This document shows positions 19,701 through 55,300 of a stretch of 64,000 nt of DNA, piece after piece (position 1 is the first letter of the stretch; every line of letters starts with the position of its first letter). The position numbers and the translations under genes were made by a program. A model generated the notes under the pieces. The model was not told the DNA's origin, did not search any database, and was given only the letters and a program-made list of their open reading frames with translations. This DNA is from Lytechinus pictus (lineage: Eukaryota): positions 6,388,001-6,452,000 of the forward strand of contig NC_087245.1 of the NCBI RefSeq assembly GCF_037042905.1, given 5' to 3'.

Positions 19701-22700
19701 TCATCAGTGGGCTGATGATTTCACACCCCACTTTCCTTTCTCTTATGTTATTACATGAAATCACAATTGTCTTATTTTTGCATACATGTGTGAATGATGT
19801 GCCTTCCCTATAATGAAATAAATTGCAGTGCCCAATGAATATCTAATGCACTAAATCAGTTGTCAATCCATTTTTTTAGTTTTTGGATTAAAGAATTTGA
19901 ATAAACCTAATTTCATATAATGAAATACAAAAGAACAAGTGGGGATAGGACATCAATTTGCTCATTGAATATTCATGAAGACATGCATATAATTGTTTTA
20001 ATGGAATTATGAAAATCTTTAAAATGCCATTACATTGTTATACCTTGTCCGATTTGTGATAAAAATTTTCAGTTATTTGTTTGATTTTTTTAATCTGTTC
20101 AACAAAATCATTTAAAGTACCCCTTTAAGGATGTTCCACAGTTAAAGTGAAATCTATGTCATTTTCACCAAACTTTGCACATAGATACTTTAGCACCTGA
20201 ATATTTCAAATGTGCAAAAATTAATGTGGTTTATGTGCTTGATTTTTTGCTATAGAACTTCAAAGTTCACCCAAATGGATGTTCTTTAGAATTGCGTGTT
20301 CAATAGAATTTGGCATTTTTAGACCTCACAAGATCACTACAATGAGTATGAACACCTATCAGTGCTATTTGCTTTTTTAAGTCCAACAGCACTGTCAGTT
20401 CCTTAAAATGGTGTGAAAGATAACAAAAACCCAATTTCAAAAATGTGAAATTTCAATAACAAACTTGAAAAGTACAATAAATCCTGCACTTTATTCAAAA
20501 CCCATGTCATTTTCACCAAACTTTGCAGAGTTGTAGAGGAAGGTATACCTAAGAGGAGCAAACATTAAAAAAATAGGGGTTCATGTACTTTTTTTGAAAC
20601 TATCAGCACTTTTATGAGAGCAAATGTGCTTTTTAAAACACCAAAACGTGCCAAACTCTTTGTATCTATGTGAGGAAAAATTCCAAACCACTCTACCATT
20701 TATTCAAACTCGGGGTCATATTCGTCATACTTTGCAGAACTGTAAAGTATTTCAAAATTGGAGAGGGATTAAAAAGAAATGGTCAATGGAATAATTCTAG
20801 TTTATGAGCTTCATAAAATATCATGTCGGATCTGCAGTTAGAGTGTAGTTAATGAGAAAATACAGCTTATACATGTACCTACAACTGATTAATCACTTGT
20901 TCATCCATTGTGACGTCAGCACGCAGAGTGTGAAATATGCGCAGATCATGATGAGCACAAACATAACTGTGGAACGTCCTTAAATGATTTCTCCTTTTTT
21001 GTAGCTATGCAGTGTGATGGATGCCGGGAATACGATCCCTGCATTGAACTTTGCTACACCTGTGGCCATGAGAACGATTGGGATGAAGACGGGAACTGCC
21101 CTCATACATGTTTCGAGGGATGCAGTTGTCCCAGTGGACAGTTTTACTATGGAGACCAATGTGTTGACAGTTGCCCAGTAGCCACAACTCCATGCATTGA
21201 CCACACCACAACTACCCCTCACACTACAAGTAAGTATCTCCTGAACACAACTCAAACAAAACATTTGATTGTAGGACTAAGATTGCGTTGATTATTATGT
21301 GCAATGAAGTGAACATATAAACTGAACGATCAATTGCTAATAATTAGGAAAACGTGAAAAAAATCTAAAACAGGAAACAAAGAAACAAGCACACGACTGC
21401 TAAAAAAATGACAGGCCCACCAGAATCTTACACTCTACCTCTTAAATAATCAACAGTACCACAGGGAACTACCACTCAACCCCCTGAAACAACAACAGGT
21501 CTGCCGGGTACTACCAGTCTTTCCCCTGAAACAACAACTTCGCTCCCGGAAACTACCACTCAACCACTTGAAACAACAACAGGACCACCAGGAACTACAA
21601 CTCAACTCCCTGAAACAACAACAGGTCTGCTGAGAACTACCACTGTTCCCCCTGAAACAACAACAGTGCCCCAAGGAACTACCACCAAACCCCCGGAAAC
21701 AACAACAGGACCTCCAGGAACTACCACTCAACCACCTGAAACAACCACAGGACCGCCAAGAACTACCACTCAACCACCTAAAACAACAACAGGACCTCCG
21801 GGAACTACCACTCAACCAATGGAAACAACAACAGGACCACTAGGAACTACATCTCAAACACCTGAAACAACATTTCCCCCAGGAACTACCACCAAACCTC
21901 CGGAAACAACAACAGGACCTCCAAGAACTACCACTCAACCACCTAAAACAACAACAGGACCTCCGGGAACTACCATTCAACCACCGGAAACAACCACAGG
22001 ACCGCCAAGAACTACCACTCAACCACCTAAAACAACAACAGGACCTCCGGGAACTACCACTCAACCAATGGAAACAACAACAGGACCACTAGGAACTACA
22101 TCTCAAACACCTGAAACAACATTTCCCCCAGGAACTACCACAAAACCTCTGGAAACAACCACAGGACCACCAAGAAGTACCACTCAAGCATCTGAAACAA
22201 CTACAGGACCTCCGGGAACTACCACTCAACCACCGGAAACAACAGGACCACTAGGAACTACATCTCAACCACCTGAAACAACGTTTCCCCCAGGAACTAC
22301 CACCAAACCTCTGGAAACAACCACAGGACCACCAAGAAGTACCACTCAACCACCTGAAACAACAACATTGCCCCCAGAAACTACCACCAAACCTCTGGAA
22401 ACAACCACAGGACCTCCAAGAACTACCACTCAACCACCTGAAACAACAACATTGCCCCCAGGAACTACCACCAAACTTCCGGAAACAACAACAGGACCTC
22501 AAGGAACTACCATTCAACCACCTGTAACAACTACATTGCCCTCAGGAACTACCACCAAACCTCCGGAAACGACCACAGGACCACCAAGAAGTACCACTCA
22601 ACCACCTGAAACAACTACAGGACCTCCGGGAACTACCACTCAACCACCGGAAACAACAGGACCACTAGGAACTACATCTCAACCACCTGAAACAACGTTT

Positions 22701-25700
22701 CCCCCAGGAACTACCACCAAACCTCTGGAAACAACCACAGGACCACCAAGAAGTACCACTCAACCACCTGAAACAACAACATTACCCCCAGGAACTACCA
22801 CCAAACTTCCGGAAACAACAACAGGACCACCAAGAACTACCACTCAACCACCTGAAACAACAGGACCACCAGGAACTACATCTCAACCACCTGAAATAAC
22901 AACATTGCCCCCAGAAACTACCACCAAACCTCTGGAAACAACCACAGTCCCCCTAAGAACTACCACCAAACCCCCGGAAACAACAACAGGACCTCCAGGA
23001 ACTACCACTCAACCACCTGAAACAACAACATTGCCCCCAGAAACTACCACCAAACCTCTGGAAACAACCACAGGACCTCCAGGAACTACCACTCAACCCC
23101 CTGTAACAACCACAGTCCCCCTAAGAACTACCACCAAACCCCCGGAAACAACAACAGGACCTCCAGGAACTACCACTCAACCACTTGAAACAACAACAGG
23201 ACCTCCAGGAACTACAACTCCATTCCATGAAACAACAACAGGGCCCCAAGCAACTACCACCAAACCTCTGGAAACAACCACAGGACCACCAAGAACTACC
23301 ACTCAACCACCTGAAACAACAACAGGACCACCAGGAACTACATCTCAACCACCTGAAACAACATTGCCCCCAGAAACTACCACTAAACCTCTGGAAACAA
23401 CCACAGGTCCACCAAGAACTACCACTCAACCACCTGAAACAACAACATTGCCCCCAGGAACTACCACCAAACCTCCGGAAACAACAACAAGACCTCCAGG
23501 AACTACCACTCAACCACCAAAGACAACAACAGGACCACCAGGAACTACATCTCAACAACCTGAAACAACAACATTGCCCCCAGGAACTACCACCAAACCT
23601 CCGGAAACAACAACAGCACCTCCAGGAACTACCACTCAACCACCTGAAACAACAACATTGCCCCCAGGAACTACAACCAAACCTCTGGAAACAACCACAG
23701 GACCACCAAGAACTACCACTCAACCACCTAAAACAACAACAGGACCAACAGGAACTACATCTCAACCCCCTGAAACAACGAGAGTGTCCCAAGGAACTAC
23801 CACCAAACCCCCGGAAACAACAACAGGACCTCCAGGAACTACCACTCAACCACCTGAAACAACAACAGGACCTCCAGGAACTACAACTCCATTCCATGAA
23901 ACAACCACAGGACCACCAAGAACTACCACTCAACCACCTGAAACAACAACATTGCCCCCAGGAACTACCACCAAACCTCCAGAAACAACAACAGGACCTC
24001 CGGGAACTACCATTCAACCCCCAGAAACAACAACATTGCCCCCAGGAACTACCACCAAACCTCCAGAAACAACAACAGGACCTAAAGAAACTACCACTCA
24101 ACCACCTGAAACAACAACATTGCCCCCAGGAACTACCACCAAACTTCCGGAAACAACAACAGGACCTCCGGGAACTACCATTCAACCACCTAAAACAACA
24201 AAATTGCCCCCAGAAACTACCACCAAACCTCTGGAAACAACCACAGGACCGCCAGGAACTACACCTAAACCACCTGAAACAACAACATTGCCCCCAGAAA
24301 CTACCACTACACCTCTGGAAACAACAACAGGACCTCCGGGAACTACCATTCAACCACCTGTAACAACTACATTGCCCTCAGGAACTACCACCAAACCTCC
24401 GGAAACAACCACAGGACCACCAAAAACTACCCCTCAACCACCTGAAACAACAACAGGACCTCCAGGAACTACCACTCAACCACCTGAAACAACAACAGGA
24501 CCTCCAGGAACTACAACTCCATTCCATGAAACAACCACAGGACCACCAAGAACTACCACTCAACCACCTGAAACAACAACATTGCCCCCAGGAACTACCA
24601 CCAAACCTCCAGAAACAACAACAGGACCTCCGGGAACTACCATTCAACCCCCAGAAACAACAACATTGCCCCCAGGAACTACCACCAAACCTCCAGAAAC
24701 AACAACAGGACCTAAAGAAACTACCACTCAACCACCTGAAACAACAACATTGCCCCCAGGAACTACCACCAAACTTCCGGAAACAACAACAGGACCTCCG
24801 GGAACTACCATTCAACCACCTAAAACAACAAAATTGCCCCCAGAAACTACCACCAAACCTCTGGAAACAACCACAGGACCGCCAGGAACTACACCTAAAC
24901 CACCTGAAACAACAACATTGCCCCCAGAAACTACCACTACACCTCTGGAAACAACAACAGGACCTCCGGGAACTACCATTCAACCACCTGTAACAACTAC
25001 ATTGCCCTCAGGAACTACCACCAAACCTCCGGAAACAACCACAGGACCACCAAAAACTACCCCTCAACCACCTGAAACAACAACAGGACCACCAGGAACT
25101 ACATCTAAACCACCTGAAACAACAACATTGCCCCCAGAAACTACCACCAAACCTCTGGAAACAACCACACGACCTCCAGGAACTACCACTCAACCACCTG
25201 AAACAACAACAGGACCACCAGGAACTACCACTCAACCACCAGAAACAACAACAGGGCCCCCAGGAACTACATCTCAACCCCCAGAAACAACAACAGGTCT
25301 GCAGAGAACTACCACTATTCCCTCTGAAACAACAACAGTCCCCCTAAGAACTACCACCAAATCCCCGGAAACAACAACAGGGCCTCCTGGAACTACCACT
25401 CAACCACCTGAAACAACAACAGTCCCCCTAAGAACTACCACCAAACCCCCGGAAACAACAACAGGACCTTCAGGAACTACCACTCAACCACCTGAAACAA
25501 CAGGACCTCCAGGAACTACAACTCCATTCCATGAAACAACAACAGGGCCCCCAGCAACTACCACCAAACCTATGGAAACAACCACAGGACCACCAAGAAC
25601 TACTACTCAACCACCTAAAACAACAACAGGACCTCCAGGAACTACATCTCAACCACCTGAAACAACAACAGGACCTCCAGGAACTACCACTCAACCACCT

Positions 25701-28700
25701 GAAACAACAACAGGAACTACAACTCAATTCCATGAAACAACAACAGGGCCCCCAGGAACTACCACCAGACCTCTGGAAACAACCACAGGACCACCAAGAA
25801 CTTCCACTCAACCACCTGAAACAACATTGCCCCCAGGAACTACCATTCAACCACCTGAAACAACAGGACCTCCAGGAACTACAACTCCATTCCATGAAAC
25901 AACAACAGGGCCCCCAGCAACTACCACCAAACCTATGGAAACAACCACAGGACCACCAAGAACTACTACTCAACCACCTAAAACAACAACAGGACCTCCA
26001 GGAACTACATCTCAACCCCCTGTAACAACAACAGGACCACCAGGAACTACATCTCAACCACCTGAAACAACAACATTGCCCCCAGAAACTACCACCAAAC
26101 CTCTGGAAACAACCACAGGACCTCCAGGAACTACCACTCAACCCCCTGTAACAACAACAACAGGACCACCAAGAACTACCACCAAACCTCGGGAAACAAC
26201 AACAGGACCTCCAGGAACTACCACTCAACCACCTGAAACAACAACAGAACCACCAGGAACTACATCTCAACCACCTGAAACAACAACAGGACCACCAGGA
26301 ACTACCACTCAACCACCTGAAACAACAGGGCCCCTAGGAACTACATCTCAACCCCCCAAAACAACAACAGGTCTGCAGAGAACTACCACTGTTCCCTCTG
26401 AAACAACAACAGTCCCCCTAAGAACTACCACCAAACCCCCGAAAACAACAACAGGACCTCCAGGAACTACCACTCAACCACCTGAAACAACAACAGTCCC
26501 CCTAAGAACTACCACCAAACCCCCGGAAACAACAACAGGACCTCCAGGAACTACAACTCAACCACCTGAAACAACAACAGGACCTCCAGGAACTACAACT
26601 CCATTCCATGAAACAACAACAGGGCCCCTAGCAACTACCACCAAACCTCTGGAAACAACCACAGGACCACCAAGAACTACCACTCAACCACCTGAAACAA
26701 CAACAAGACCACCAGAAACTACAACTCAACCCCCTGAGACAACAACAGGTCTGCTAAGTACTACCACTGTTCCCCCTGAAACAACACTGCCCCCAGGAAC
26801 TACCACCAAAACTCCGGAAACAACAACAAGACCTCCGGGAACTACCATTCAACCCCCTGAAACAACAACATTGCCCCCAGGAACTACCACCAAACCTCCG
26901 GAAACATCAACAGGACCTCCAGGAACTACCACTCAACCACCTGAAACAACAACATTGCCCCCAGGAACTACCACCAAACTTCCGGAAACAACAGCAGGAC
27001 CTCCGGGAACTACTATTCAACCCCCTGAAACAACAACATTGCCCCCAGGAACTACTACCAAACCTCCGGAAACAACAACCGGACCTCCTGGAACTACCAC
27101 GCAACCACCTGAAACAACAACATCGCCCCCAGCAACAACCACCAAACTTCCGGGAACAACCACAGGACCACCAAGAACTACCACTCAACCACCTGAAACA
27201 ACCACAGGATCACCAAGAACTACCACTCAACCATATGAGACAACAACAGGACCACCAGGAACTACATCTCAACCACCTGAAACAACAACAGTGCCCCCAG
27301 GAACAACCACCAAACTTCCGGGAACAACCACAGGGCCACCAGGAACTACCACGCAACCACCTGAAACAACAGCACAGACTCCAGGAACTACAACTCAACT
27401 CCCTGAAACAACAACAGGACCACCAGGAACTACTACCAAACTCCCTGAAACAACAACAGGACCACTACAAACTACCACTCAACCACCTGAGACAACAGGA
27501 CCTCCAGGAACTACCACTCAACCAGTGGAAACAACAACAAGACCCCCAGGAACTACCACTCAACCACCTAAAACAACAACATTGCCCCCAGGAACTACCA
27601 CCAAACCTCCGGAAACAACAACAGGACCTCCAGGAACAACCACTCAACCACCTGAGACAACAACAGGTCTGCTAAGTACTACCACTGTTCCCCCTGAAAC
27701 AACACTGCCCCCAGGAACTACCACCAAAACTCCGGAAACAACAACAAGACCTCCGGGAACTACCATTCAACCCCCTGAAACAACAACATTGCCCCCAGGA
27801 ACTACCACCAAACCTCCGGAAACATCAACAGGACCTCCAGGAACTACCACTCAACCACCTGAAACAACAACATTGCCCCCAGGAACTACCACCAAACTTC
27901 CGGAAACAACAGCAGGACCTCCGGGAACTACTATTCAACCCCCTGAAACAACAACATTGCCCCCAGGAACTACTACCAAACCTCCGGAAACAACAACCGG
28001 ACCTCCTGGAACTACCACGCAACCACCTGAAACAACAACATCGCCCCCAGCAACAACCACCAAACTTCCGGGAACAACCACAGGACCACCAAGAACTACC
28101 ACTCAACCACCTGAAACAACCACAGGATCACCAAGAACTACCACTCAACCATATGAGACAACAACAGGACCACCAGGAACTACATCTCAACCACCTGAAA
28201 CAACAACAGTGCCCCCAGGAACAACCACCAAACTTCCGGGAACAACCACAGGGCCACCAGGAACTACCACGCAACCACCTGAAACAACAGCACAGACTCC
28301 AGGAACTACAACTCAACTCCCTGAAACAACAACAGGACCTCCAGGAACTACCACTCAACCACTTGAAACAACAGCATCGCCCCCATCAACAACCACCAAA
28401 CTTCCGGGAACAACCACAGGACCACAAAGAACTACCACTCAACCACCTGAAACAACCACAGGACCACAAAGAAGTACCACTCAACCACCTGAAACAACCA
28501 CAGGACCTCCAGGAACTACCACTCAACCATTGGAAACAACAACAAGACCACCAGGAACTACCACTCAACCACCTAAAACAACAACATTGCCCCCAGGAAC
28601 TACCACCAAACCTCCGGAAACAACAACAGGACCTCCAGGAACTACCACTCAACCACCTGAAACAACAACAAGACCACCAGGAACTACCACTCAACCACGT

Positions 28701-31700
28701 GAAACAACAACAGGACCACCAGGAACTCCAACTCAACCTCCTGAAACAACAACAATTCCCCCAAGAACTACCACTAAACCCCCGGAAACAACCACAGGAC
28801 CACCAGGAACTACCACTCATCTACCTGAAACAACAACAAGATCACTTGAAACTACCATTCAAGTGACTCAACCATCTGCAGCAACAACAGGTTTGAATAT
28901 GCATGTATGAATTATGCAAGTGCAAATCATGAGCTAAAATTTTGGAGATAAGACACAAAAACTGGGCATTTTACTTTCTTCTTGTAGTCATGAAATTAAA
29001 GCTTATCTTACTAAACACTTAATACGGTGGCGAAGTCGTGATATAGTGATATGCAAAAGGATATTTCTAGGAATTCATCAAGAAAATACACATCGCACTA
29101 ATCAAATAGTGAAGTGTGAGCCAATTTTTTTTATTCACACCTGAAAACAAACATTTTATATACATTTACGAAAATAATTAGCAGATACTTCTGTCAGTAT
29201 GTAAACCAACCATAATGCATGACTTCAAACTTTATTGTGTCCCTACCCTTATTCATTTCTTTCTTTTTTGGGGGGAGGGGAGACTTGTTGGCCTGCTTGC
29301 TTGCATGCAACTTTTTCATAGACTGTGTCCCTTAGTGTTTTCTACTCATTATACACCCCTGCATTGAATGAAAGTATATTTTTTCAATATACTCTAGCTT
29401 CCTTGCACTATGCAACATTGTAAAGTTATATAGGTCTTTAAAGGGGAAATTCCTTGTGTATGGTTTTAGCAGTTTTTGTCTAAATGAACAAATTATTACA
29501 AAACCTTACTAACAATAACACATTGCGTTTCTTCCACACACCCTGAAACCAGAAAATGTTACAACATTCACGACTGTCGCTACAACTTCATTGGTTACCA
29601 CTCTACCACCCACTGAATGCGTCCCACGTGTAATGAGTTCTCCAGCGAATGTCTCCTACAATGGTTGTGTACCTATACAACCAATTTATTTGGAAGAGTG
29701 TGCTGGAACATGTGACTCTAGTTACTCCATGGAGGTATGATTTTAACCACAATTCTAATTCTTAACTCAAATTGTACTTGTTAATACATGATTTTTGAAG
29801 CACAGTTGTCCATGGTTTATCTGTTTATATCTAATATTTTGCATGGGGAGAGCTACTCTACATTTAAATCATTTAACTCCTACAGGACTTGGAGTGCATG
29901 ATGGCCAAATTAGAGATTGAACATACAAGCATTGGAAGTCAAATGACTTTTTTTAACACTTTGAAAATACACTCATTTCATGATCAATGGCAGTTAAGAT
30001 TCATTAAGAGGTGTTTCTTAATTTGTCAATGGAGCATCAAATGTTAAAAACTTTGTTGCATCCCAAATTACCATATCCTTGTTTCGTTTTCCTTAATTAT
30101 TGCAAATCAACTTACAGCTTGGATGGACTTTATTTCTTAATTAAGGCAAAGTCCATTATCATGAATTGAGATAAAACAAACTTAATACTGAAAAATTAAA
30201 AAAGATTATAATATGAAATGGTATTTGTTATGTCAACATTTATCTTTCTGCCATTCAAGGAGCGGTATGCAAGTGATAGAGTCGATGGTATCAAATACTC
30301 ACGATGACTCCCTTCCCCCTCCCCGTGTAAGAAAGCGGTCATAACAGTGCTGTACAAAGCTGCTTTTATATTAGAAATTTGCAGTCAAACTCGAATGCCT
30401 AGTTCACACTTGCAGGCATTGTGTATGGTGCCCGTATTACCCCGCATTAATGCATGCCAGTGTGGGACAACTTGGTATGACTTACCTGTATCAGTGCACA
30501 AATATGTCCTGACACATTCACGACATAGTTGCGACATGTTTCCGCATTGCCTTGCATAATTCACGTAACATTCAAGCATTGTCCTGACATACATTCAGTG
30601 AACAATCTTGCATCCTATTATATGACGTATGGCACAAATTTCGATATTCCGTTATGGTCTTTATGTCATGTCATGACTTTGATTTGAAATTTTAATTCCT
30701 GTTCAGTAGGAAATGAATTATTGTAAAGGGTCCAATCAGGGTCCTCACAAATTCTAAGAAGCCCTTTTTATCAAACAATATGTCCTGCATATGAACTATT
30801 TTATTTCATCCATCCTAACATCAATTTCAAAATCAATGATGAAGTTGAGGATGATGAGGAGTATCTGGACCTTTCTGTCATAGCCACATCATGATCATTT
30901 ATTTCAGTTGTCTTGTTTATTTTTCTTCCATATTTCATTGCAATTATATGTTGTTAGCTTCTTATTATTTCAGAATAAAGTCAGACCAACGAACGCTGAG
31001 GGCAGCAACAATGCAAAGTGTTGACGCCCTCTATGATCATTGATCAGGATCACTTGCAGGGCTCACATGAGTAATTCAATCTGCCATTTACTTACGTGAT
31101 AAATCATATCTCATTAAAAAAATCATAAAATATCAACCCCTCGATAGATTTCCCTTTAATTCACTGATATTAATCACAATGAATAGTACAACAAAATCAG
31201 ACGTGTTAATCTGGTACTTGTCCAGCTCAAACAAAATTTAAATGGCCTGCAATAAGACTAACCATAATTTCAGTCAATTCGCTGCAAGAAAAACCGGAAA
31301 TGCAATGTGGATAATAATAATTAAAATCAAACAAAAAAATGCAGTCTAGCATCTCCAAAGGCCCTAATTATGAGTATGAGCATAGCATTATTTCTATCAT
31401 TTATATTTTGATATGCAAATATTTTGTCTATTTTTCATGATTTATTCTAATCAATAAAGTCATGTGATGTTGACTTATGCCTATCCAGAATGCATTACAC
31501 CAGTATGAATGACTCATGTGTGCCCTACATTGATCATTTGGTTTGGATATGTAACCTTTGCGCTTATCATTTCCGAACTCATTTTGCGCCAGAAAATGTC
31601 TATTTCGACGCCACATAATTGCACGTATTGGCAAAGCTATGTTGATAAGTTATGCACTGTTTACGAATAGTTCACAAATTTATAATGCATGCCCAAATTT

Positions 31701-46300: not shown

Positions 46301-49300
46301 TCAGTAGGTCTATAAATGGGACCAATGTCAATTAGCATTCATTAACGTTATCAATAAATCTATTCTATAGACATGAAAACGCAAGTATACAGTTATGAAC
46401 ATACATGGTATGCATTTCTGTTCTTATTTTCTTCACTTTTTTTTCCGTCAGTCCGAAGCAGAAGAAGAATTGGATAGGTATTCTCAAGGAGCTGTAGATG
46501 CTGCACTATTGGTATGTATCCCAACATGCACCTAATTGATCATGGTCAATGCACCCCCCAAATCGATTACGCCTTCCGCTTGCACACATTTATTGCTTCT
46601 TTCACAACCACATCATACAATTTTATACTTGTTTTGTGCTTATATATACTTTTGTATATCACCTTTATTCGAACAAACAACAAAAAGAAGTACCATTATA
46701 ATAAGTTCAAGTTACATTTTAGGACAAAGTACATCATCAATGTCATAAGTAGTGAACTAGCGATAGACAATATGACAAGAAGATATACATAAAACGATTT
46801 TCCCCACATTAACCCTATTTTAGGCCAGGATAAATAAAAGGGGAATTTGACCCCCCCCCCCTTCAGATCTGGGCCGCTGATTGCACGATCGCCGCGGAAA
46901 TTTGCACGCGCGTAGAATCGGATGTAAAGTACAAGATCGTATAGTAAAATTTTCAAAAGATTAATTGTTTATAGTTTTAATTAATTAATCATGCAAATAA
47001 GCATATGAAATTTGCCCTAAATATGTTTTTGTACGTAGTTTTGCCTTTAACTCTCTTTATATAGCTAGTAGAATGCTAATTCATTGTAAGTGTATCAAGT
47101 TTTACATTTCTAACAAAATTTAATGTCTACAAAAAATTGCCAAAATATAATTAATTTCTTATGTATTTTATTGTTTATAAATTCTTATGTATTTCTTTTT
47201 TTCGAATATTTTTTTATTGTTTTTTCCGATGAACTTTCCCGCATAAAATAAAATAAATCCATTTAAACCAAAAAAAGTAAAGTAATCATACATTTATGAT
47301 TTTTGGTTGAAAAACACAATTGACTTTGTACACAGAATCAAGTTTTTGAGCAATTTTAGGTCTGGCATGCACTCACAAAATGATGCGTAATTTCGGAACC
47401 GCGTACCCGTGTGTCACAAAATTGGTCTTAAAAGATGCGCAAGACTTGAAAATAATATCGTCGCGGTCAAAAAATTTCGCGCGGCGGCGTAGTGACGAAA
47501 TGTGTCGAGGGGGGGGGGGGTCAAATTGACCCCCCAGTATAAGGGTTAAAAAAGGTAAGTAGTTATAGGTGAGACCTCATACCAACTTGACCTTTGACCC
47601 GGTCAGCCTTTGACCTTTAGCCCGGTCAGCCTTTGACCTTTAGCCCGGTCAGCCTTTGGCTAGGTCACCCATGACCTTTAGTCCGGTCAGCCTTTGACCG
47701 CATGACCTTTAGTCCGGTCAGCCTTTGACCTTTAGCCTGGTCAGCCTTTGACCTTTAGCCCGGTCATCCATGCCCTTTACCCCGGTCAGCCTTTGACCAC
47801 ATGACCCAATGGGTTGACCCAGACTTCCGGCCAGCCATGAAATGGTATTTTATCCACCGTGATGTCATAGAATTACCCTTATCGCACCATCGGTATTGCA
47901 CCACCGTTGTGTCATCGCCAAGTATGGATAAATTTCGGTCGACCTTATCGCACGATGCAGCGACGTTGCACGGGTATTTTTAGCATATGATACGATGCAC
48001 AAAACAGACGTATGATTTCTGCACAGTTTCCTATTGAAAAAGTGATCTTTCTCCGCCTATATACCAGCAGATATGTCAAGTGCCTCGCATGACGTCACCA
48101 TGAAATGGTGTTAGCGACGCAACCACCGTGATGTCATCCCAGGGAATTACCCTTATCGCACCGTATCGGTATTGCACCACCGTGGCGCAATCGTCACGTA
48201 TAGGATACGATGCACAAAACAGACGTATGATTTCTACACAGTTTCCTATTGAAAAAGTTATCTTTCTCCGCCTACCAGCAGATATGTCAAGTGCCTCGCG
48301 GTACACGAATCGATCGCCCCATGCACGGCCAACGCGCGTCATTGAACTTGGGAGATCATATTCAAGGTGAAAGCCGGCTCTCTCTGCCTCTTATTACAAC
48401 AATTATTGGTAATCCAACATGTGATTATAATAGTGACATCTCAAGCTCTACTCATTCCAGACTTTTACACATTAAAACTCTCTGACTTTTTCATACTGTT
48501 TTGTTCATACTTTTCATTTAACTCACATGACCTAGCTGCCCGGCTCTCTGACTCGCAAAAAGTATACTATATTGAAACCAGTAGATGACTCCTTTAAATC
48601 AACTTCATTCATCCGCAGTACAGATGGTGATAACATGAAACACTATACAGTCAAGGATGATTCTTTATTCTTATCATTTATTCTATTCCATTTCAATGTA
48701 GATAGGTTCAGATACTGTATAAACAGCAGATTTTGATACAAAGGTAAAATAATGTAAGTTATGTTCTCAAATTATGTTGTAATAACAAACTAATTGTTAA
48801 CTGTTCATTGTTAATATTAAAGTGAAGTTCTCGTTTTTCTATTTCTTCGCTTAACTTAATGGATTGTAACACATGTCTATGGATGGCATTCAGAAAATAT
48901 GAACACAATGAACTTCAAACTGTCATTTATGTTGACGGCGTTTTCTTGGATTATTATTATTTGACAAGCTGATGTCTGTGCCTTTAGTTGTAGACTCCAT
49001 CTTCACCCTCCGTTTCTTCTCCACCATCATCATCGTCATCGTCACCTTGATACTGGAATAAACCATCGAATTGTGAACCATGCCTGGCTAACACTCTCTG
49101 TACGGATTTCCGGAATTCCATGCCATTCTCTAATCTTTCCGTGAGATCGGACACGATTTCACGTCAGCGTCTTCGAGGTACACGTTCTGCTGCAAGAACT
49201 GAGAGTAAAGATCGAAAAAGATGCGTTTGACTGCCCAGAGTAGTTTCACGTGAGCCTTTAATTGCTTTAGCGTCTTCTTCTTCCATTCCTTCTGAGATGT

Positions 49301-52300
49301 ATTTCTGATATTTTTCGTCTCTCAAGTCCTCGGTGGTTGTCATGGCTTGCTCTAACCATCCTCGATAAGCGAGGTTATCTTCAGTTTCTTCCATGTTTGC
49401 TGTCATTGACGATTCGTGTCCATCGCTTTCTGATACGCTCGTTTCGGAATCATCGTTGGATTCTTCAACTCTTTGCATTTGAGAGGATGGGTCGGAGTCT
49501 TCATTATCACTCGTTTCTTCTCCAGTATCATGCTCGTTTTGTTCATGCCTCTGCATATCATACTTCCTACTAAAGGTTTTATCGCATCGTGAACAAGCGT
49601 AACGGTTGGACATATCCAACGTATTCATGTTGACTCGATGATTATTTGCTGGGAAATGAAGAAAATTAACGTTCAACCTTGTAATAATACGTAATCATGA
49701 ACTTCGATTTTTACAGATTCTTACGAATTCTATGGATTCTTACGGACTTTTACGGATTCTTACGGATTTTTACGGATTCTTACGGATTATTACTGATTTT
49801 TACGGATTCTTACAGATTTTTACGGATTCTTACGGATTTTTGCGGATTCTTACGGATCATATAGCTTACGGATTATAGCTTACGGATTTTTACGGATTTT
49901 TTACGGATTCTTACGGATATTTTACGGATTCTTACGGATTTTTACGGATTCTTACGGATTTTTACGGACTTTTGCGGATTCTTACGGATTCTTACGGATC
50001 ATATAGCTTACGGATTATAGCTTACGGATTTTTACGGATTTTTTACGGATTCTTATGGATATTTTACGGATTCTTACGGATTTTTACGGATTCTTACGGA
50101 TTTTTATGGATTCTTACGGACTTTTGCGGATTCTTACGGATTCTACAGATTAATTAATGCTTTCATAAAATCTTTCATATAATCTCAAGGAAAATATGTT
50201 CATCCACGTTGGAATGACCCATGCAGCATGGGAATCTGCAAGAATCCGTAAGAATCCGCAAAAGTCCGTAAGAATCCGTAAAATATCCATAAGAATCCGT
50301 AAAAAATCCGTAAGCTATATGATCCGTAAGAATCCGTAAGAATCCGCAAAAGTCCGTAAGAATCCGTAAAAATCCGTAAGAATCCGTAAAAATCCGTAAG
50401 AATCCGTAAGAATATCCGTAAAATATCCGTAAGAATCCGTAAAAATCCGTAAAAATCTGTAAGCTATAATCCGTAAGCTATATGATCCGTAAGAATCCGC
50501 AAAAATCCGTAAGAATCCGTAAAAATCTGTAAGAATCCGTAAAAATCAGTAATAATCCGTAAGAATCCGTAAAAGTCCGTAAGAATCCATAGAATTCGTA
50601 AGAATCTGTAAAAATCGAAGTTCATGATTACGTATTATTACAAGGTTGAACGTTAATTTTCTTCATTTCCCAGCAAATAATCATCGAGTCAACATGAATA
50701 CGTTGGATATGTCCAACCGTTACGCTTGTTCACGATGCGAAAACCTTTAGTAGGAAGTATGATATGCAGAGGCATGAACAAAACGAGCATGATACTGGAG
50801 AAGAAACGAGTGATAATGAAGACTCCGACCCATCCTCTCAAATGCAAAGAGTTGAAGAATCCAACGATGATTCCGAAACGAGCGTATCAGAAAGCGATGG
50901 ACACGAATCGTCAATGACAGCAAACATGGAAGAAACTGAAGACAACCTCGCTTATCGAGGATGGTTAGAGCAAGCCATGACAACCACCGAGGACTTGAGA
51001 GACGAAAAATATCAGAAATACATCTCAGAAGGAATGGAAGAAGAAGACGCTATTAAAGCAAAGGCTCACGTGAAACTACTCTGGGCAGTCAAACGCATCA
51101 TTTTCGATCTTTTCTCTCAGTTCTTGCAGCAGAACGTGTACCTCGAAGACGCTGACATCAATCGTGAAATCGTGTCCGATCTCACGGAAAGATTAGAGAA
51201 TGGCATGGAATTCCGGAAATCCGTACAGAGAGTGTTAGCCAGGCATGGTTCACAATTCGATGGTTTATTCCAGTATCAAGGTGACGATGACGATGATGAT
51301 GGTGGAGAAGAAACGGAGGGTGAAGATGGAGTCTACAACTAAAGGCACAGACATCAGCTTGTCAAATAATAATAATCCAAGAAAACGCCGTCAACATAAA
51401 TGACAGTTTGAACTTCATTGTGTTCATATTTTTTGAATGCCATCCATAGACATGTGTTACAATCCATTAAGTTAAGCGAAGAAATAGAAAAACGAGAACT
51501 TCACTTTAATATTAACAATGAACAGTTAACAATTAGTTTGTTATTACAACATAATTTGAGAACATAACTTACATTATTTTACCTTTGTATCAAAATCTGC
51601 TGTTTATACAGTATCTGAACCTATCTACATTGAAATGGAATAGAATAAATGATAAGAATAAAGAATCATCCTTGACTGTATAGTGTTTCATGTTATCACC
51701 ATCTGTACTGCGGATGAATGAAGTTGATTTAAAGGAGTCATCTACTGGTTTCAATATAGTATACTTTTTGCAAGTCAGAGAGCCGGGCAGTTAAAATGAA
51801 AAGTATGGAAATATGAACAAAACAGTATGAAAAAGTCAGAGAGTTTTGATGGGGAAAAGTCTGGAATGAGTAGAGCCTGAGATGTCACTATTATCATGAT
51901 TATAATCACATGTTGGATTACCAATAATTGTTGTAATAAGAGGCAGAGAGAGAGTCGGTTTTCACCTAGCTTTCCAATAGGATATCCCAAGTTCAATGAC
52001 GCGCGTTGGCCGTGCATGGGGTGATCGATTCGTGTACCGTGAGGCACTTGACATATCTGCTGGTAGGCGGAGAAAGATAACTTTTTCAATAGGAAACTGT
52101 GTAGAAATCATACGTCTGTTTTGTGCATCGTATCCTATACGTGACGATTGCGCCACGGTGGTGCAATACCGATACGGTGCGATAAGGGTAATTCCCTGGG
52201 ATGACATCACGGTGGTTGCGTCGCTAACACCATTTCATGGTGACGTCATGCGAGGCACTTGACATATCTGCTGGTATATAGGCGGAGAAAGATCAATTTT

Positions 52301-55300
52301 TCAATAGGAAACTGTGCAGAAATCTTACGTCTATTTTGTGCATCGTATCCTATACGTGACGATTGCGCCATGGTGGTGCAATACCGGGTAAATGGTAATT
52401 CCCTGGGATGACGTCACGGTGCTTATGTAGCCGGTGACGTCATGCGAGGCGCTTGACATATCCGCTGTAGGCGGAGAATGATCACTTTTTAAATAAGAAA
52501 CTGATGTCTTTTTGTGCATCGTATCGTGTGCCCGTGCAACGTCGCTGCATCGTGTGATCGACCGAAATTTATCCATACGCGGCGATGACGCAACGGTGGT
52601 GCAATACCGATGGTGCAATGAGGGTAATTCCCTGACATCACGGTGGTTGCGTAACCGTGTCGTAATACCATTTCACAGTGACATGGCTGACCGGAAGTCT
52701 GGGTCAACCCATTGGGTCATGTGGTCAAAGGCTGAACGGGGTAAGGGTCATGCGGTCAAAGGCTGACCGTGCCAAAGGTCATTTGGTCAAAGGCTGACCA
52801 GGCTAAAGGTCAAAGGCTGACCGGACTAAAGGTCATGTGGTCAAAGGGCATGGGCCAAAGGTCAAAGGCTGACAGGCTAAAGGTCAAAGGCTGACCTGGC
52901 TAAAGGTCATGTGGTCAAAGGGCCAAAGGTCAAAGGCTGACCGAGCTAAAGGTCATGCGGTCAAAGGGCATGCGGTCAAAGGTCATGGGTAAAAGGTCAA
53001 GTTGGTATGAGGTCTCACCTATAACTACTAAGGTATACATGTAGGGGGCTGCGAGTCCCTGGGCGGAGAGACCGGTGTCACGACCACAGTCATACAAACT
53101 CATATGCGGCGCACAATTGCCCTCATTTGTTGGCGATTGTATTGCAGGAAAGAAAATTGAAATGTAATTCTTTCAGTAAGTCCACCTTTGAATTTCAGTT
53201 GCTTTTAGGAAACATTTCGGCAGATTCTAACCAGAGATTACTTTGGTTGATTTTATTTTCATATTCACCAAAAGATAATAACAGATAACAAATAATAATA
53301 ATAATAAATAAATTAATAAATTAATTAATATAGATACATAAATAAAATGCATACATACTTAAATAAAAAGATTTTAATAAATATCATCCATTATTATAAC
53401 TGAAATTATTTGTCCAACAGACGATAGCTGAAGAATATTTGGAGAATTTCGCTGAAACATTTGTAACAACTATTATTAAGGTACGTACAATAATATATTT
53501 TGCAATATCTATTCATGTCCTAATTTAAGATCGGCAAAATAAAGTCCAGACATAATTTCAAAGCCTTGTACACACCAAACTTTATTATGTTGCGTTCGTC
53601 AATATTTTTCAGGAGGTGATTGTCCTCAGTTCATTATATTGAAATAATGACAATATAGGCCTACTCTCCTTTAACTCATATAGATGTAGAGATATTATCT
53701 CAGTTAAAATCCTAAAGGTGCCTCATCAAGTGCGACCACGTCATTGGCTAAATAATATTTTCTCTGATTCCTATTTCATTATAAGTGCCCAGAATACTAA
53801 ATACCTTCAATTACTTGTTCTTATTTATATCTGAAAGGGGCGCTTTCCCTTTCAAAGTGACACTACTTTCCCATTTTCTGAGTGTTTTTTTTTTTTTTAA
53901 TCTATGATGAGAGCTTTTTCATGCGCGTAGAATTGATATCAATAGCACAAGTCAAATCATTGATGGGACTACAATATTATGTCATTGTCACATTTTATTG
54001 CTGTCGTTCGTAATACGGGTCCCTTTCTTTTTCTGTAATTCATTCGTCTCGGGATCACAAGCAACCATTTACTCTATTACTTATGCAGAACACCAACAAG
54101 GAAACAGACGGCGCCAATTTAGAAAAACTGAAACAAAGGTCAACCGTTGAAGGACCTTTTAAAGTAAGCATCTATTCACACTCTAAAAAATATTGGGTAA
54201 AAGTGCTCCATGAGGGTAATTATGTGTCCAACCAACATTGGGCATTTCTTTTGGGCATTTTTATTTATCCAGTGTGATGAAAGATGTGCCCATTCTTAAG
54301 TAATTGCTGCTTATTTGTTTAACCTTACTAATATGCTTCCCGCATTGGGTAAAATACTACCCAAAAGTGGTTGGACACATAATTACTCTCTTGGTGGTAA
54401 AAAAATTCACCCAATTTTTTTACAGTGCAGTACCAAGTGATTCAGAATAAGATTACACCTCAAAATTGCCAATTTAATGAAAAAAAATGGCCGGAACACA
54501 AAACATTGATACATGTTCTAAATTGATACAACTAATTTCATGTGGTGTGTTTACGTTTAGATGATGTATTCTTTGTTGTGATAACTTAAACATGATCTCA
54601 TGGTCGCATGTACATGTATTTTGTGACGAGTGATGCATATAGGACATGCTTTGTACTATGATGTTAATTAATCTTATGTACTGTTGTGAAAGAAGAAATA
54701 AACAAACCATGAACAATATGACGTACAATTCAATTTGCACTAAAGGAAGACAGGAATGCAGTGAACGTCGTCATTATCCTTCATGATTGCAAAATCAATT
54801 TTCAGTTAAGGTGTTTATTGAACAATAATGTTAACCTTTAAAAAACAAATATCTTGCAAAAAATCTTGTAGGATTATGACATTTTGATCCATTCATTGCA
54901 ATCATGTCATTCTTTGGTGCATTTCAAATTTTAAATCACACAAAAGAATATCTCCTAATCATCCATACTTAAAGTATACCACATGGAATGATGATACGTT
55001 TTTTAGAAGGCACTATTTTAGGACATGAGGGTATTTTTTTTTAATCATTCTTAAATTGTACACATTTTCCGACTCACTGGGTGAATTCTTTTAAAGGGTG
55101 TATCAGAATGAAAGGTAATCCAAATCTACGGGGCGAATATTCAACGATTATTAAATATTCGGTTCAATTCAATTCAATTTATTTCCAAATTCATCAAAAA
55201 TAACACAATGAGAACGAAATTAAATTATAGATAAAGAAATACAGAAAAACAGAACATAACCAAACAAAAAGTGGTAATAGTAAAATAACAGTTGGCACAC

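Follow-up and report, generated by a model that had tools for sequence, protein, structure and literature searches.

Between positions 47558 and 53029 of a 64,000-nucleotide stretch of the Lytechinus pictus genome (contig NC_087245.1, positions 6,388,001 to 6,452,000; this whole stretch is called the window) lies an element of about 5.5 kb that begins and ends like a Polinton/Maverick, reads almost from end to end as an inverted repeat and carries one copy of a gene in each of its two arms. The question raised by this locus is what kind of element this is, and by which machinery such a palindrome could be inserted and copied. A first-pass annotation of the window had proposed that one end of a Polinton was copied back on itself, in the manner of a snap-back defective viral genome, and integrated as a unit, a reading that is supported in part. 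The most probable answer, to which we assign a probability of about 0.7, is that the element represents an old and no longer active member of a family of fold-back (palindromic) elements, which derive from Polintons/Mavericks, are non-autonomous and behave in a satellite-like manner. The members of this family may be mobilised in trans, may replicate via a hairpin and may hijack the packaging of a Polinton.

The element in the window and its family in the genome

The element proper comprises 5,472 bp (47558-53029); the span of 47552-53035 reported before counts both target-site copies. It starts with AGTAGT and ends with ACTACT, the outermost 38 bases of each side are perfect reverse complements, the target-site copies (AAGGTA at 47552-47557 and 53030-53035) are identical, and the inverted similarity continues through the gene-bearing arms over the whole element, all of which agrees with the first-pass annotation. 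Its arms of 2.6 and 2.8 kb hold as well, whereas the centre measures about 92 bp instead of the 81 bp given for the spacer, a difference lying within the blur that inverted 10-bp repeat arrays, flanking the spacer on both sides, create at its edges. From the end towards the centre, the 38-bp terminus is followed by about 200-300 bp of tandem repeats with periods of 23-46 bp, about 1.2 kb without long open reading frames (ORFs), an outward-reading ORF, of which each arm has one copy, about 400 bp of a 10-bp repeat and finally the unique centre of about 92 bp. The features of the window element are the following:

47552..47557, no strand: left target-site copy, AAGGTA
47558..50146, plus strand: left arm, 2,589 bp
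47558..47595, plus strand: left terminus, 38 bases, with the (AGT)2 start and a perfect inverted match to the right terminus
47587..47798, plus strand: left subterminal array of a repeat of about 23 bp, rich in TGACC words
48987..49628, minus strand: left copy of the zinc-finger/helical-domain gene, outward-reading, frame broken
49706..50144, plus strand: left 10-bp repeat array, about 44 copies, from the gene start to the centre
50147..50238, no strand: central spacer, about 92 bp, unique and non-palindromic
50232..50616, plus strand: right 10-bp repeat array, inverted relative to the left array
50239..53029, minus strand: right arm, 2,791 bp
50694..51342, plus strand: right gene copy, outward-reading, frame broken
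52715..52999, plus strand: right subterminal arrays (periods of 23, 31 and 46 bp), TGACC-rich, longer than the left array and 77-80% like it
52992..53029, minus strand: right terminus, 38 bases, with the (ACT)2 end
53030..53035, no strand: right target-site copy, AAGGTA

When the left arm (2,589 bp) and the reversed right arm (2,791 bp) were aligned globally, 2,401 matches, 102 mismatches and 374 gap columns were found, corresponding to an identity of 95.9% over the aligned pairs, and the differences cluster in the subterminal repeat arrays, at 750-1,000 bp from the end and in the central repeats. On the left side, TGACC words reach a density of 40 per kb in the first 300 bp compared to 0.6 per kb inside. 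Both gene copies are broken: in the left one, four bases are inserted near codon 122 and seven are deleted near codon 154, and in the right one, two bases are missing at codon 16 within the zinc finger. The right copy has, in addition, two in-frame 3-base changes. Pfam searches with the ORFs of the window element and of intact relatives revealed no polymerase, integrase, ATPase, protease or capsid domain, as had been noted for the window copy before, and because these core genes are absent the element does not belong to the autonomous Polintons. The window copy is an old, dead and chimeric member of its family. Directly to the left of the insertion, at 47508-47538, lies a palindrome built of a G run, TCAAATTGA and a C run, which may represent the end of another repeat.

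The 812-Mb assembly of the source species was searched for further termini with a degenerate 23-base pattern allowing at most one mismatch, and the reversed pattern was used as control. This search resulted in 146 matches (79 forward and 67 reverse) compared to none for the control, and among the matches listed there are at least 35 plus/minus pairs 2.6-6.9 kb apart. A perfect 6-bp duplication, different in each case, flanks 12 of the 13 elements with both ends sequenced (L035 has none), and taken together with the 146 pattern matches against zero these duplications exclude chance. The two 23-base termini are identical within each element (13/13), and a symmetric inverted match covers at least 0.91 of the element in nine of the 12 tested. 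The remaining structures vary: L022 contains an off-centre insertion, yet has two inverted gene copies, L023 is 3.1 kb in length with a single gene copy, and L035 has undergone rearrangement. Ten of the 13 elements contain the central spacer, once each, and it also occurs in a 26-kb composite and a tandem array, with 88-99% identity. Because the copies checked have this spacer in common, they go back to a single founding fold, which arose once and spread by insertion as a palindromic unit. The multi-copy family of palindromic insertions, predicted from the window alone, is thereby confirmed, with the same spacer and differing 6-bp duplications at its loci.

Between the conserved blocks of the terminus lies a hexamer (positions 9-14; 47566-47571 and 53016-53021 in the window) that occurs in at least ten variants among the copies. 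It is always alike at both ends of one fold-back, and the two ends of a Polinton on contig C6, introduced below, carry different variants. In viral contigs the terminus pattern was not found.

L023 was considered as an ancestral 'monomer' and rejected; since it is devoid of the spacer and nests inside the palindromic copies in the tree, it is better understood as a derived deletion. A head-to-head dimer of a simple element was rejected as well, the arms having neither internal termini nor internal TGACC clusters.

The family also occurs in larger arrangements. At C17:8134560-8181441 (L052-L056), a 46.9-kb block contains about 11 tandem fold-back units with a period of about 4.1 kb, in which the right arm is truncated about 920 bp short of its end and the next full terminus follows without intervening sequence. 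Inverted termini and the 6-bp duplication ATACGC enclose the block as a whole, and the sequence of the outer flank recurs in some of the internal units. At C6:21765963-21792011 (L049-L051), a composite of 26,049 bp between fold-back termini, with the duplication TACATG, holds about 13 kb of other DNA between two copies of a 5.2-kb fold-back unit, which are 99.3% identical. Far-apart pairs of termini of one variant, similar to this composite, are present at C8:29.71-29.76 Mb and C5:48.69-48.73 Mb.

Ends shared with a resident Polinton and the concerted evolution of the arms

Ends of the type (AGT)2//(ACT)2 together with perfect 6-bp duplications constitute a published signature of vertebrate Mavericks (PMC8097293; this and the other articles cited are drawn on in extracts), and a short terminal tandem repeat is part of the general definition of Polintons (PMC4196379). 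The same end motif is found on a Polinton with polymerase and integrase genes residing in the same genome, which bears out the Polinton-type ends proposed for the window element. A search of the genome with the Pfam family of protein-primed polymerases yielded 36 matches, and at C6:1299810-1316732, between two terminus matches, a Polinton of 16,923 bp was identified, which has the duplication CATATT and a terminal repeat of 540 bp at 97% identity and is called the helper in the following. Among its ORFs there are matches to DNA_pol_B_2 (E 2e-34), rve together with a chromodomain (1e-10), Pox_A32 (1e-7) and a PC4-like domain, one further ORF represents the polymerase tail, and in the other ORFs neither a capsid nor a protease was recognised with Pfam and PHROGs. 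The helper integrase recurs with 99-100% identity at C17:12.80 Mb and C21:5.80 Mb, both with the terminus pattern or end-specific segments, and judging from these matches the helper belongs to a young Polinton family of at least three copies. The second helper copy, at C17:12792967-12809161, seemingly has a nested or duplicated end, its integrase fragment (residues 46-380) ending exactly at the start of another plus-strand terminus at 12796767.

Of the first 42 bases of the window terminus, 37 are identical in the right terminus of the helper: the first eight bases are common, the variable hexamer follows at 9-14, a conserved block starts at position 15, and then comes TTGACCTTTGACC. In the helper as in the fold-backs, the outermost 300 bp contain TGACC words at a density of 33-77 per kb, which drops to about 1 per kb inside. 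The subterminal repeats of both are built of TGACC(T)/AGGTCA words, often arranged as GGTCAAAGGTCA, which presumably corresponds to the direct-repeat-1 form of nuclear-receptor half-sites. In adenovirus, sites for host factors adjoin the replication origin.

In relatives of the window copy the similarity to the helper extends much further. Both ends of the 26-kb composite follow the right end of the helper for about 700 bp. A segment specific for this end was defined as bases 544-699 from the right terminus, i.e., beyond the 540-bp repeat and with no counterpart at the left end, and both composite ends match it at 155 of 156 bases, with no match to the left end. Genome-wide, the 156-bp segment has 22 matches (22/22 scored). 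Each of the three helper copies has a single match, invariably at its right end, and the other 19 are in seven fold-back loci in inverted orientation (minus on the left, plus on the right) with 98-100% identity, one locus having only a 41-base part. A left-specific control of 160 bp matched helper copies only (4/4 matches). Since the right-specific segment is present at both ends and the left-specific one is absent, these seven fold-backs carry two Polinton right ends, and right-end sequence at both ends implies that it was acquired by one arm and copied to the other. The near-identity of the ends contrasts with the arm interiors, which differ by 7-9% among subfamilies, pointing to a recent exchange with the helper. 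The idea of one Polinton end copied back thus stands for the outer 0.7 kb or so of seven relatives, and neither for the window copy past its motif of about 40 bases nor for the arm interior of any copy; in the same way, an autonomous Polinton collinear with an arm exists as far as about 0.7 kb of right end in relatives is concerned and not for the arm interior.

The history of the arms was reconstructed in a tree built by maximum likelihood, for which a 1.5-kb segment of 34 arms was used and 15 redundant rows of the tandem array were omitted. In ten of 14 groups the two arms of one element stand together on one side of a branch, with stems of 0.013-0.024 and tips of mostly 0-0.003, and deeper branches hold all four arms of two elements at separate loci, e.g., L029 and L031 or L022 and L030. 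The exceptions to sister arms are L030, which the tree does not separate from L022, the two duplicated units of the composite, whose four arms form one clade, and the window copy. Moreover, both arms have the same stop at C6:25.76 Mb and at C1:14.30 Mb, and both are truncated in the same way at C5:41.06 Mb and in L031. Arms belonging to one element evolve together.

The arm gene and its protein

Intact copies of the arm gene encode about 216 residues from the first methionine, in which a C2H2 zinc finger is followed by a serine-rich acidic linker, a helical domain with five helices and about 115 residues, and an acidic tail. Among the best 150 of 341 candidate matches, which were scored, 107 are full-length at 92% identity or more; 98 of these 107 have no stop, and 19 lie in one tandem array. 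The median pairwise ratio of non-synonymous to synonymous substitution rates (dN/dS) is 0.44 for 35 pairs from nine independent intact copies, a value biased downward because the copies were picked for being intact. The gene is maintained by purifying selection and is not junk. For this reason the term 'defective' of the first-pass annotation is replaced by gene-bearing and satellite-like: the family has a conserved gene of its own, which is related to the packaging-ATPase module of Polintons.

This relationship became apparent from profile searches. With Pfam, the fold-back protein shows only a zf-C2H2 match of 23 bits, below the cut-off, and the P-loop ATPase core of Pox_A32 was not found in it. 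A profile search against 1.84 billion representatives resulted in 882 relatives at E ≤0.001, 36 of them at ≤1e-30 and most with 150-250 residues. Six longer relatives (P0074, P0094, P0099, P0114, P0145 and P0146) have an ATPase core ahead of the module, with profile E-values between 1e-17 (P0074) and 4e-14. They are 31-43% identical to the helper ATPase over its length and continue with finger, linker and helical domain; Pox_A32 is recognised above the cut-off in P0099 (27.7 bits) and below it in P0094 (20.8 bits). The fold-back protein aligns behind the ATPase core of P0074, P0094 and P0099, and in BLASTP its residues 11-199 match residues 199-353 of P0074 from the finger through the helical domain (E 9e-18). 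The scallop Argopecten irradians contributes one of the six, an uncharacterised protein, and several others are on contigs of 1.7-2.5 kb, which would fit transcripts. On the basis of these alignments, the arm protein and the C-terminal half of long A32-type packaging ATPases from other animals are homologues. In the source genome the two halves of P0099 are met separately: the ATPase half matches Polinton ATPases, including that of the helper (E 1e-35), in tail-less open frames of 215-264 residues, and the tail half matches stand-alone genes only. Since natural fusions exist, the fold-back protein should act together with a packaging ATPase.

Structure prediction resulted in a confident model of the helical domain (predicted local distance difference test score, pLDDT, 94; predicted template-modelling score, pTM, 0.77), which had no match at E ≤0.001 in PDB or BFVD and only generic helical similarities in VIA-align (best Z 7.1). 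The model of the whole protein is poor (pLDDT 55), and Foldseek returned zinc fingers only (E >0.6) for it. A PDB sequence search likewise found C2H2 fingers only, and the protein atlas only small zinc-finger clusters. A complex prediction for the helper ATPase and the helical domain scored 0.00; it was run without controls and weighs neither way. No relative of the arm gene was found in viral contigs, where none of 426 pattern matches was confirmed.

In three NCBI gene models, named after their likeness to a sialyltransferase (P0011), a hydroxylysine kinase (P0013) and a dentin matrix protein (P0001), the beginning corresponds to 28-57% of the fold-back protein, with 88-98% identity, which reflects either exonisation of the element gene into host transcripts or an annotation mis-join.

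Related genes are arranged in a similar way elsewhere in the genome. A second gene family, whose protein is 72-78% identical, has about 24 matches at 89% identity or more, among which, besides singles, there are two convergent pairs and five inverted pairs in divergent orientation. A third class, with about 28% identity to the P0099 tail, comprises about eleven singles and six divergent inverted pairs, which are 1-1.5 kb apart:

C14:13691446/13692859, divergent pair of the third class
C6:1966477/1967788, divergent pair of the third class
C18:7173395/7174917, divergent pair of the third class
C1:8758554/8760408, divergent pair of the third class
C2:42182489/42183523, divergent pair of the third class
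C6:24554751/24556177, divergent pair of the third class

These pairs suggest further, older palindromic families, and the recurrence of head-to-head gene pairs points to an old palindromic design that was kept.

Origin and propagation of the fold-backs

The fold-backs would be inserted in trans by a Polinton integrase and copied by a Polinton polymerase from their two identical ends. The single strand would snap back into a full-length hairpin, or the nascent strand would switch onto itself, and in each round one arm would be re-copied or corrected from the other, which would account for the symmetric stops, the symmetric deletions and the symmetric uptake of Polinton end sequence. Re-copying during replication is favoured over correction within the chromosome because the published model of Polinton replication, as far as the extracts describe it, passes through a single strand with paired terminal repeats, because a palindromic strand must fold over its full length, and because dead copies drift apart. 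The encoded protein would work with the packaging ATPase of the helper, perhaps by recognising the TGACC-rich subterminal repeats, and in this case the family would be a satellite of Polintons and not a plain deletion product. The fold itself may go back to a snap-back event during replication, the alternative being an expansion of the terminal repeat followed by an internal deletion.

Several observations weigh against this reading. Beyond the end motif of about 40 bases, the window copy shows only short blastn matches to the helper (58-87 bp, about 82%), and for the 2-kb arm interior neither blastn nor tblastx found a match to the helper; since its arm interior has no similarity to the Polinton, the element is not simply a folded-back Polinton end. 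The helper ATPase (247 residues) has no tail module, and no similarity between the fold-back protein and three helper ORFs emerged when their profiles were compared. The polymerase frame of the helper is in pieces (1,249 and 261 residues on C6, 894 and 286 on C17, 510 on C21), and an intact copy was not demonstrated among the three. The survey of the arm gene covers the best 150 of its 341 candidates. Transcription is indicated by three of three raw RNA-seq runs, of each of which about 6% was covered: 21, 7 and 26 reads fall on the L022 right arm, most of them within the gene. These 7-26 reads per run include many partial matches, do not distinguish the strand and concern this relative and not the window copy; for the window stretch itself, no run containing its RNA was listed. 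The arm tree, furthermore, fits gene conversion within the chromosome and replication-linked re-copying equally well. In this tree the arms of the window copy are not sisters, the left one grouping with L025 and L034 and the right one with L024; the differences between them consist partly, in the outer segment, of states common to two different subfamilies and, in the gene region, of private changes. Because the target-site duplication is still intact, this mosaic is older than or simultaneous with the insertion, or results from conversion without crossover.

The family could, alternatively, represent a plain deletion derivative, an explanation that we consider unlikely. An unsampled or extinct Polinton with gene-bearing terminal repeats of about 2.6 kb would have lost its interior down to about 90 bp, and gene conversion in the chromosome would have kept its arms alike with no snap-back involved. 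Terminal repeats of about 2 kb with whole genes (hexon, adenain) are described for butterfly Polintons (bioRxiv 10.1101/2025.02.07.637071), an expansion of Polinton inverted repeats is mentioned in PMC3573991, the arm gene is related to a Polinton gene module, so that it could once have sat inside a Polinton, and the equal fit of the arm tree to in-situ conversion is in agreement as well. However, a parent of this kind did not turn up, the 150 gene matches that were scored all lying more than 20 kb from each of the 36 matches to protein-primed polymerases, and the 540-bp terminal repeat of the helper is devoid of a gene. Moreover, the right-specific sequence past the helper repeat at both ends of seven fold-backs, at 98-100% identity, indicates a recent symmetric uptake, and decayed copies such as that of the window show that conversion in situ fails to keep the arms alike indefinitely. 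A fold-back transposon of another superfamily (Foldback/MuDR-, P/Galileo- or hAT-like) moved by a cut-and-paste transposase, with a likeness to Polintons by coincidence or capture, is very improbable. Foldback-like elements (Galileo, PMC3573991) have as their hallmark inverted repeats that are long, repetitive inside and furnished with tandem arrays near the ends, and modular copies of variable size, chimeras and composites around large segments are further likenesses to Foldback/Galileo. Against this stand the Polinton-type ends, which fit the published Maverick motif (PMC8097293), the duplication of 6 bp in 12 of 13 elements compared to 7 bp for Galileo (PMC3573991), the co-resident helper, and up to about 700 bp of terminal sequence 98-100% identical to a Polinton with polymerase and integrase; a transposase domain, which would be of the P type in Galileo, was found in none of the element ORFs tested. 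Galileo chimeras arising from ectopic exchange have non-matching flanks (PMC3573991), whereas the chimeric window copy keeps its matching duplication. An assembly fold-back artefact or a local inverted duplication of host DNA, finally, is refuted by the copy number and the duplications and hardly deserves any credence. Long palindromes are a known product of errors in long-read libraries and assemblies, but dozens of copies are present on many contigs with different perfect 6-bp duplications, the window arms differ by 102 substitutions and 374 gap columns, and the gene has relatives in other organisms. The arm differences, the copy number and the distinct duplications thus uphold the earlier judgement against such an artefact.

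The palindromic Polinton derivative, as the preferred reading, resembles several known systems without coinciding with any of them. With the Polintons/Mavericks the fold-backs have in common the end motif, the 6-bp duplication, the terminal inverted repeats and the termini of a co-resident autonomous element; they differ by their length (5.5 kb compared to 15-20 kb), by the absence of an own polymerase, integrase, protease or capsid gene, by being almost wholly palindromic, by the two ends of relatives both corresponding to the right end of the helper, and by a gene that is absent from the helper. Defective genomes with inverted repeats are known for adenovirus, and hairpin or palindromic derivatives for the yeast linear plasmid pGKL1. 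Such snap-back genomes likewise form a near-full palindrome around a short non-complementary centre, have identical replication ends and depend on a helper, as the fold-backs probably do. In contrast to them, the fold-backs are chromosomal, multiplied as a family at sites millions of bases apart, and gene-bearing, and they contain helper sequence only in the outer 0.7 kb or so, in relatives. The definition of snap-back/copy-back defective viral genomes includes the lack of coding capacity (PMC13506859), and snap-back genomes are also described for adeno-associated virus (PMC8235507). Because the fold-backs encode a protein and their interior is not helper sequence, they do not belong to the classical snap-back genomes. 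In their way of working they would resemble both these genomes and Polintons.

The satellite reading can be taken one step further, to a proposal that is tentative and, in our judgement, somewhat doubtful. The family would be a 'mini-virus' parasitising a Polinton, whose true genome is a hairpin of about 2.7 kb, consisting of an end, packaging/origin repeats, one gene and a loop, and alternating with a palindromic duplex of 5.5 kb that the helper integrase inserts. The protein would be a detached DNA-recognition tail redirecting the packaging motor of the helper, and perhaps its polymerase, to ends with TGACC repeats. Phage satellites such as the Staphylococcus aureus pathogenicity islands (SaPI) and the phage-inducible chromosomal islands (PICI) carry their own small terminase, which determines packaging specificity. 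The likeness to them would lie in the working only, i.e., in a small helper-dependent element with a homologue of the accessory part of a packaging enzyme, whereas the fold-backs have a eukaryotic host and unrelated proteins and are known here from sequence alone.

In the full-text literature, represented mostly by titles and the beginnings of abstracts, no description of palindromic Polinton derivatives or of the arm-gene module was found; Repbase, Dfam and the papers of the 1980s on TU elements lay outside this search and may bear on the novelty of the family. Modular fold-back 'TU' elements were reportedly described in sea urchins in the 1980s. Elsewhere in the window, an array of 7.4 kb at 21450-28910 contains 177 copies of a 42-bp unit with 75% matches within one plus-strand frame of 2,486 codons. 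It has an extreme strand skew (GC about -0.53, AT about +0.58) and looks like a giant threonine/proline-rich mucin-type repeat exon.

Replication and particle formation of Polintons/Mavericks in animals are still argued mostly from gene content. The fold-back family represents a set of natural experiments in this respect, since its end-only elements show which sequences are sufficient for insertion. The symmetric uptake of helper ends and the concerted arms provide a readable trace of a replication intermediate, a panhandle or a hairpin. Via its natural fusions, the arm gene ties a protein annotated with no function to the packaging ATPase and makes it a candidate packaging-specificity factor. 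If the satellite reading is true, the family would be an animal counterpart of phage satellites and of virophage-type parasitism, written in the chromosome, and if its members were indeed hairpin mini-viruses, the diverged gene families with inverted pairs would represent a whole radiation of such satellites. For the genome itself, the family yields long perfect palindromes, tandem arrays and composites of 26-49 kb, which are likely sources of genome instability and exon capture.

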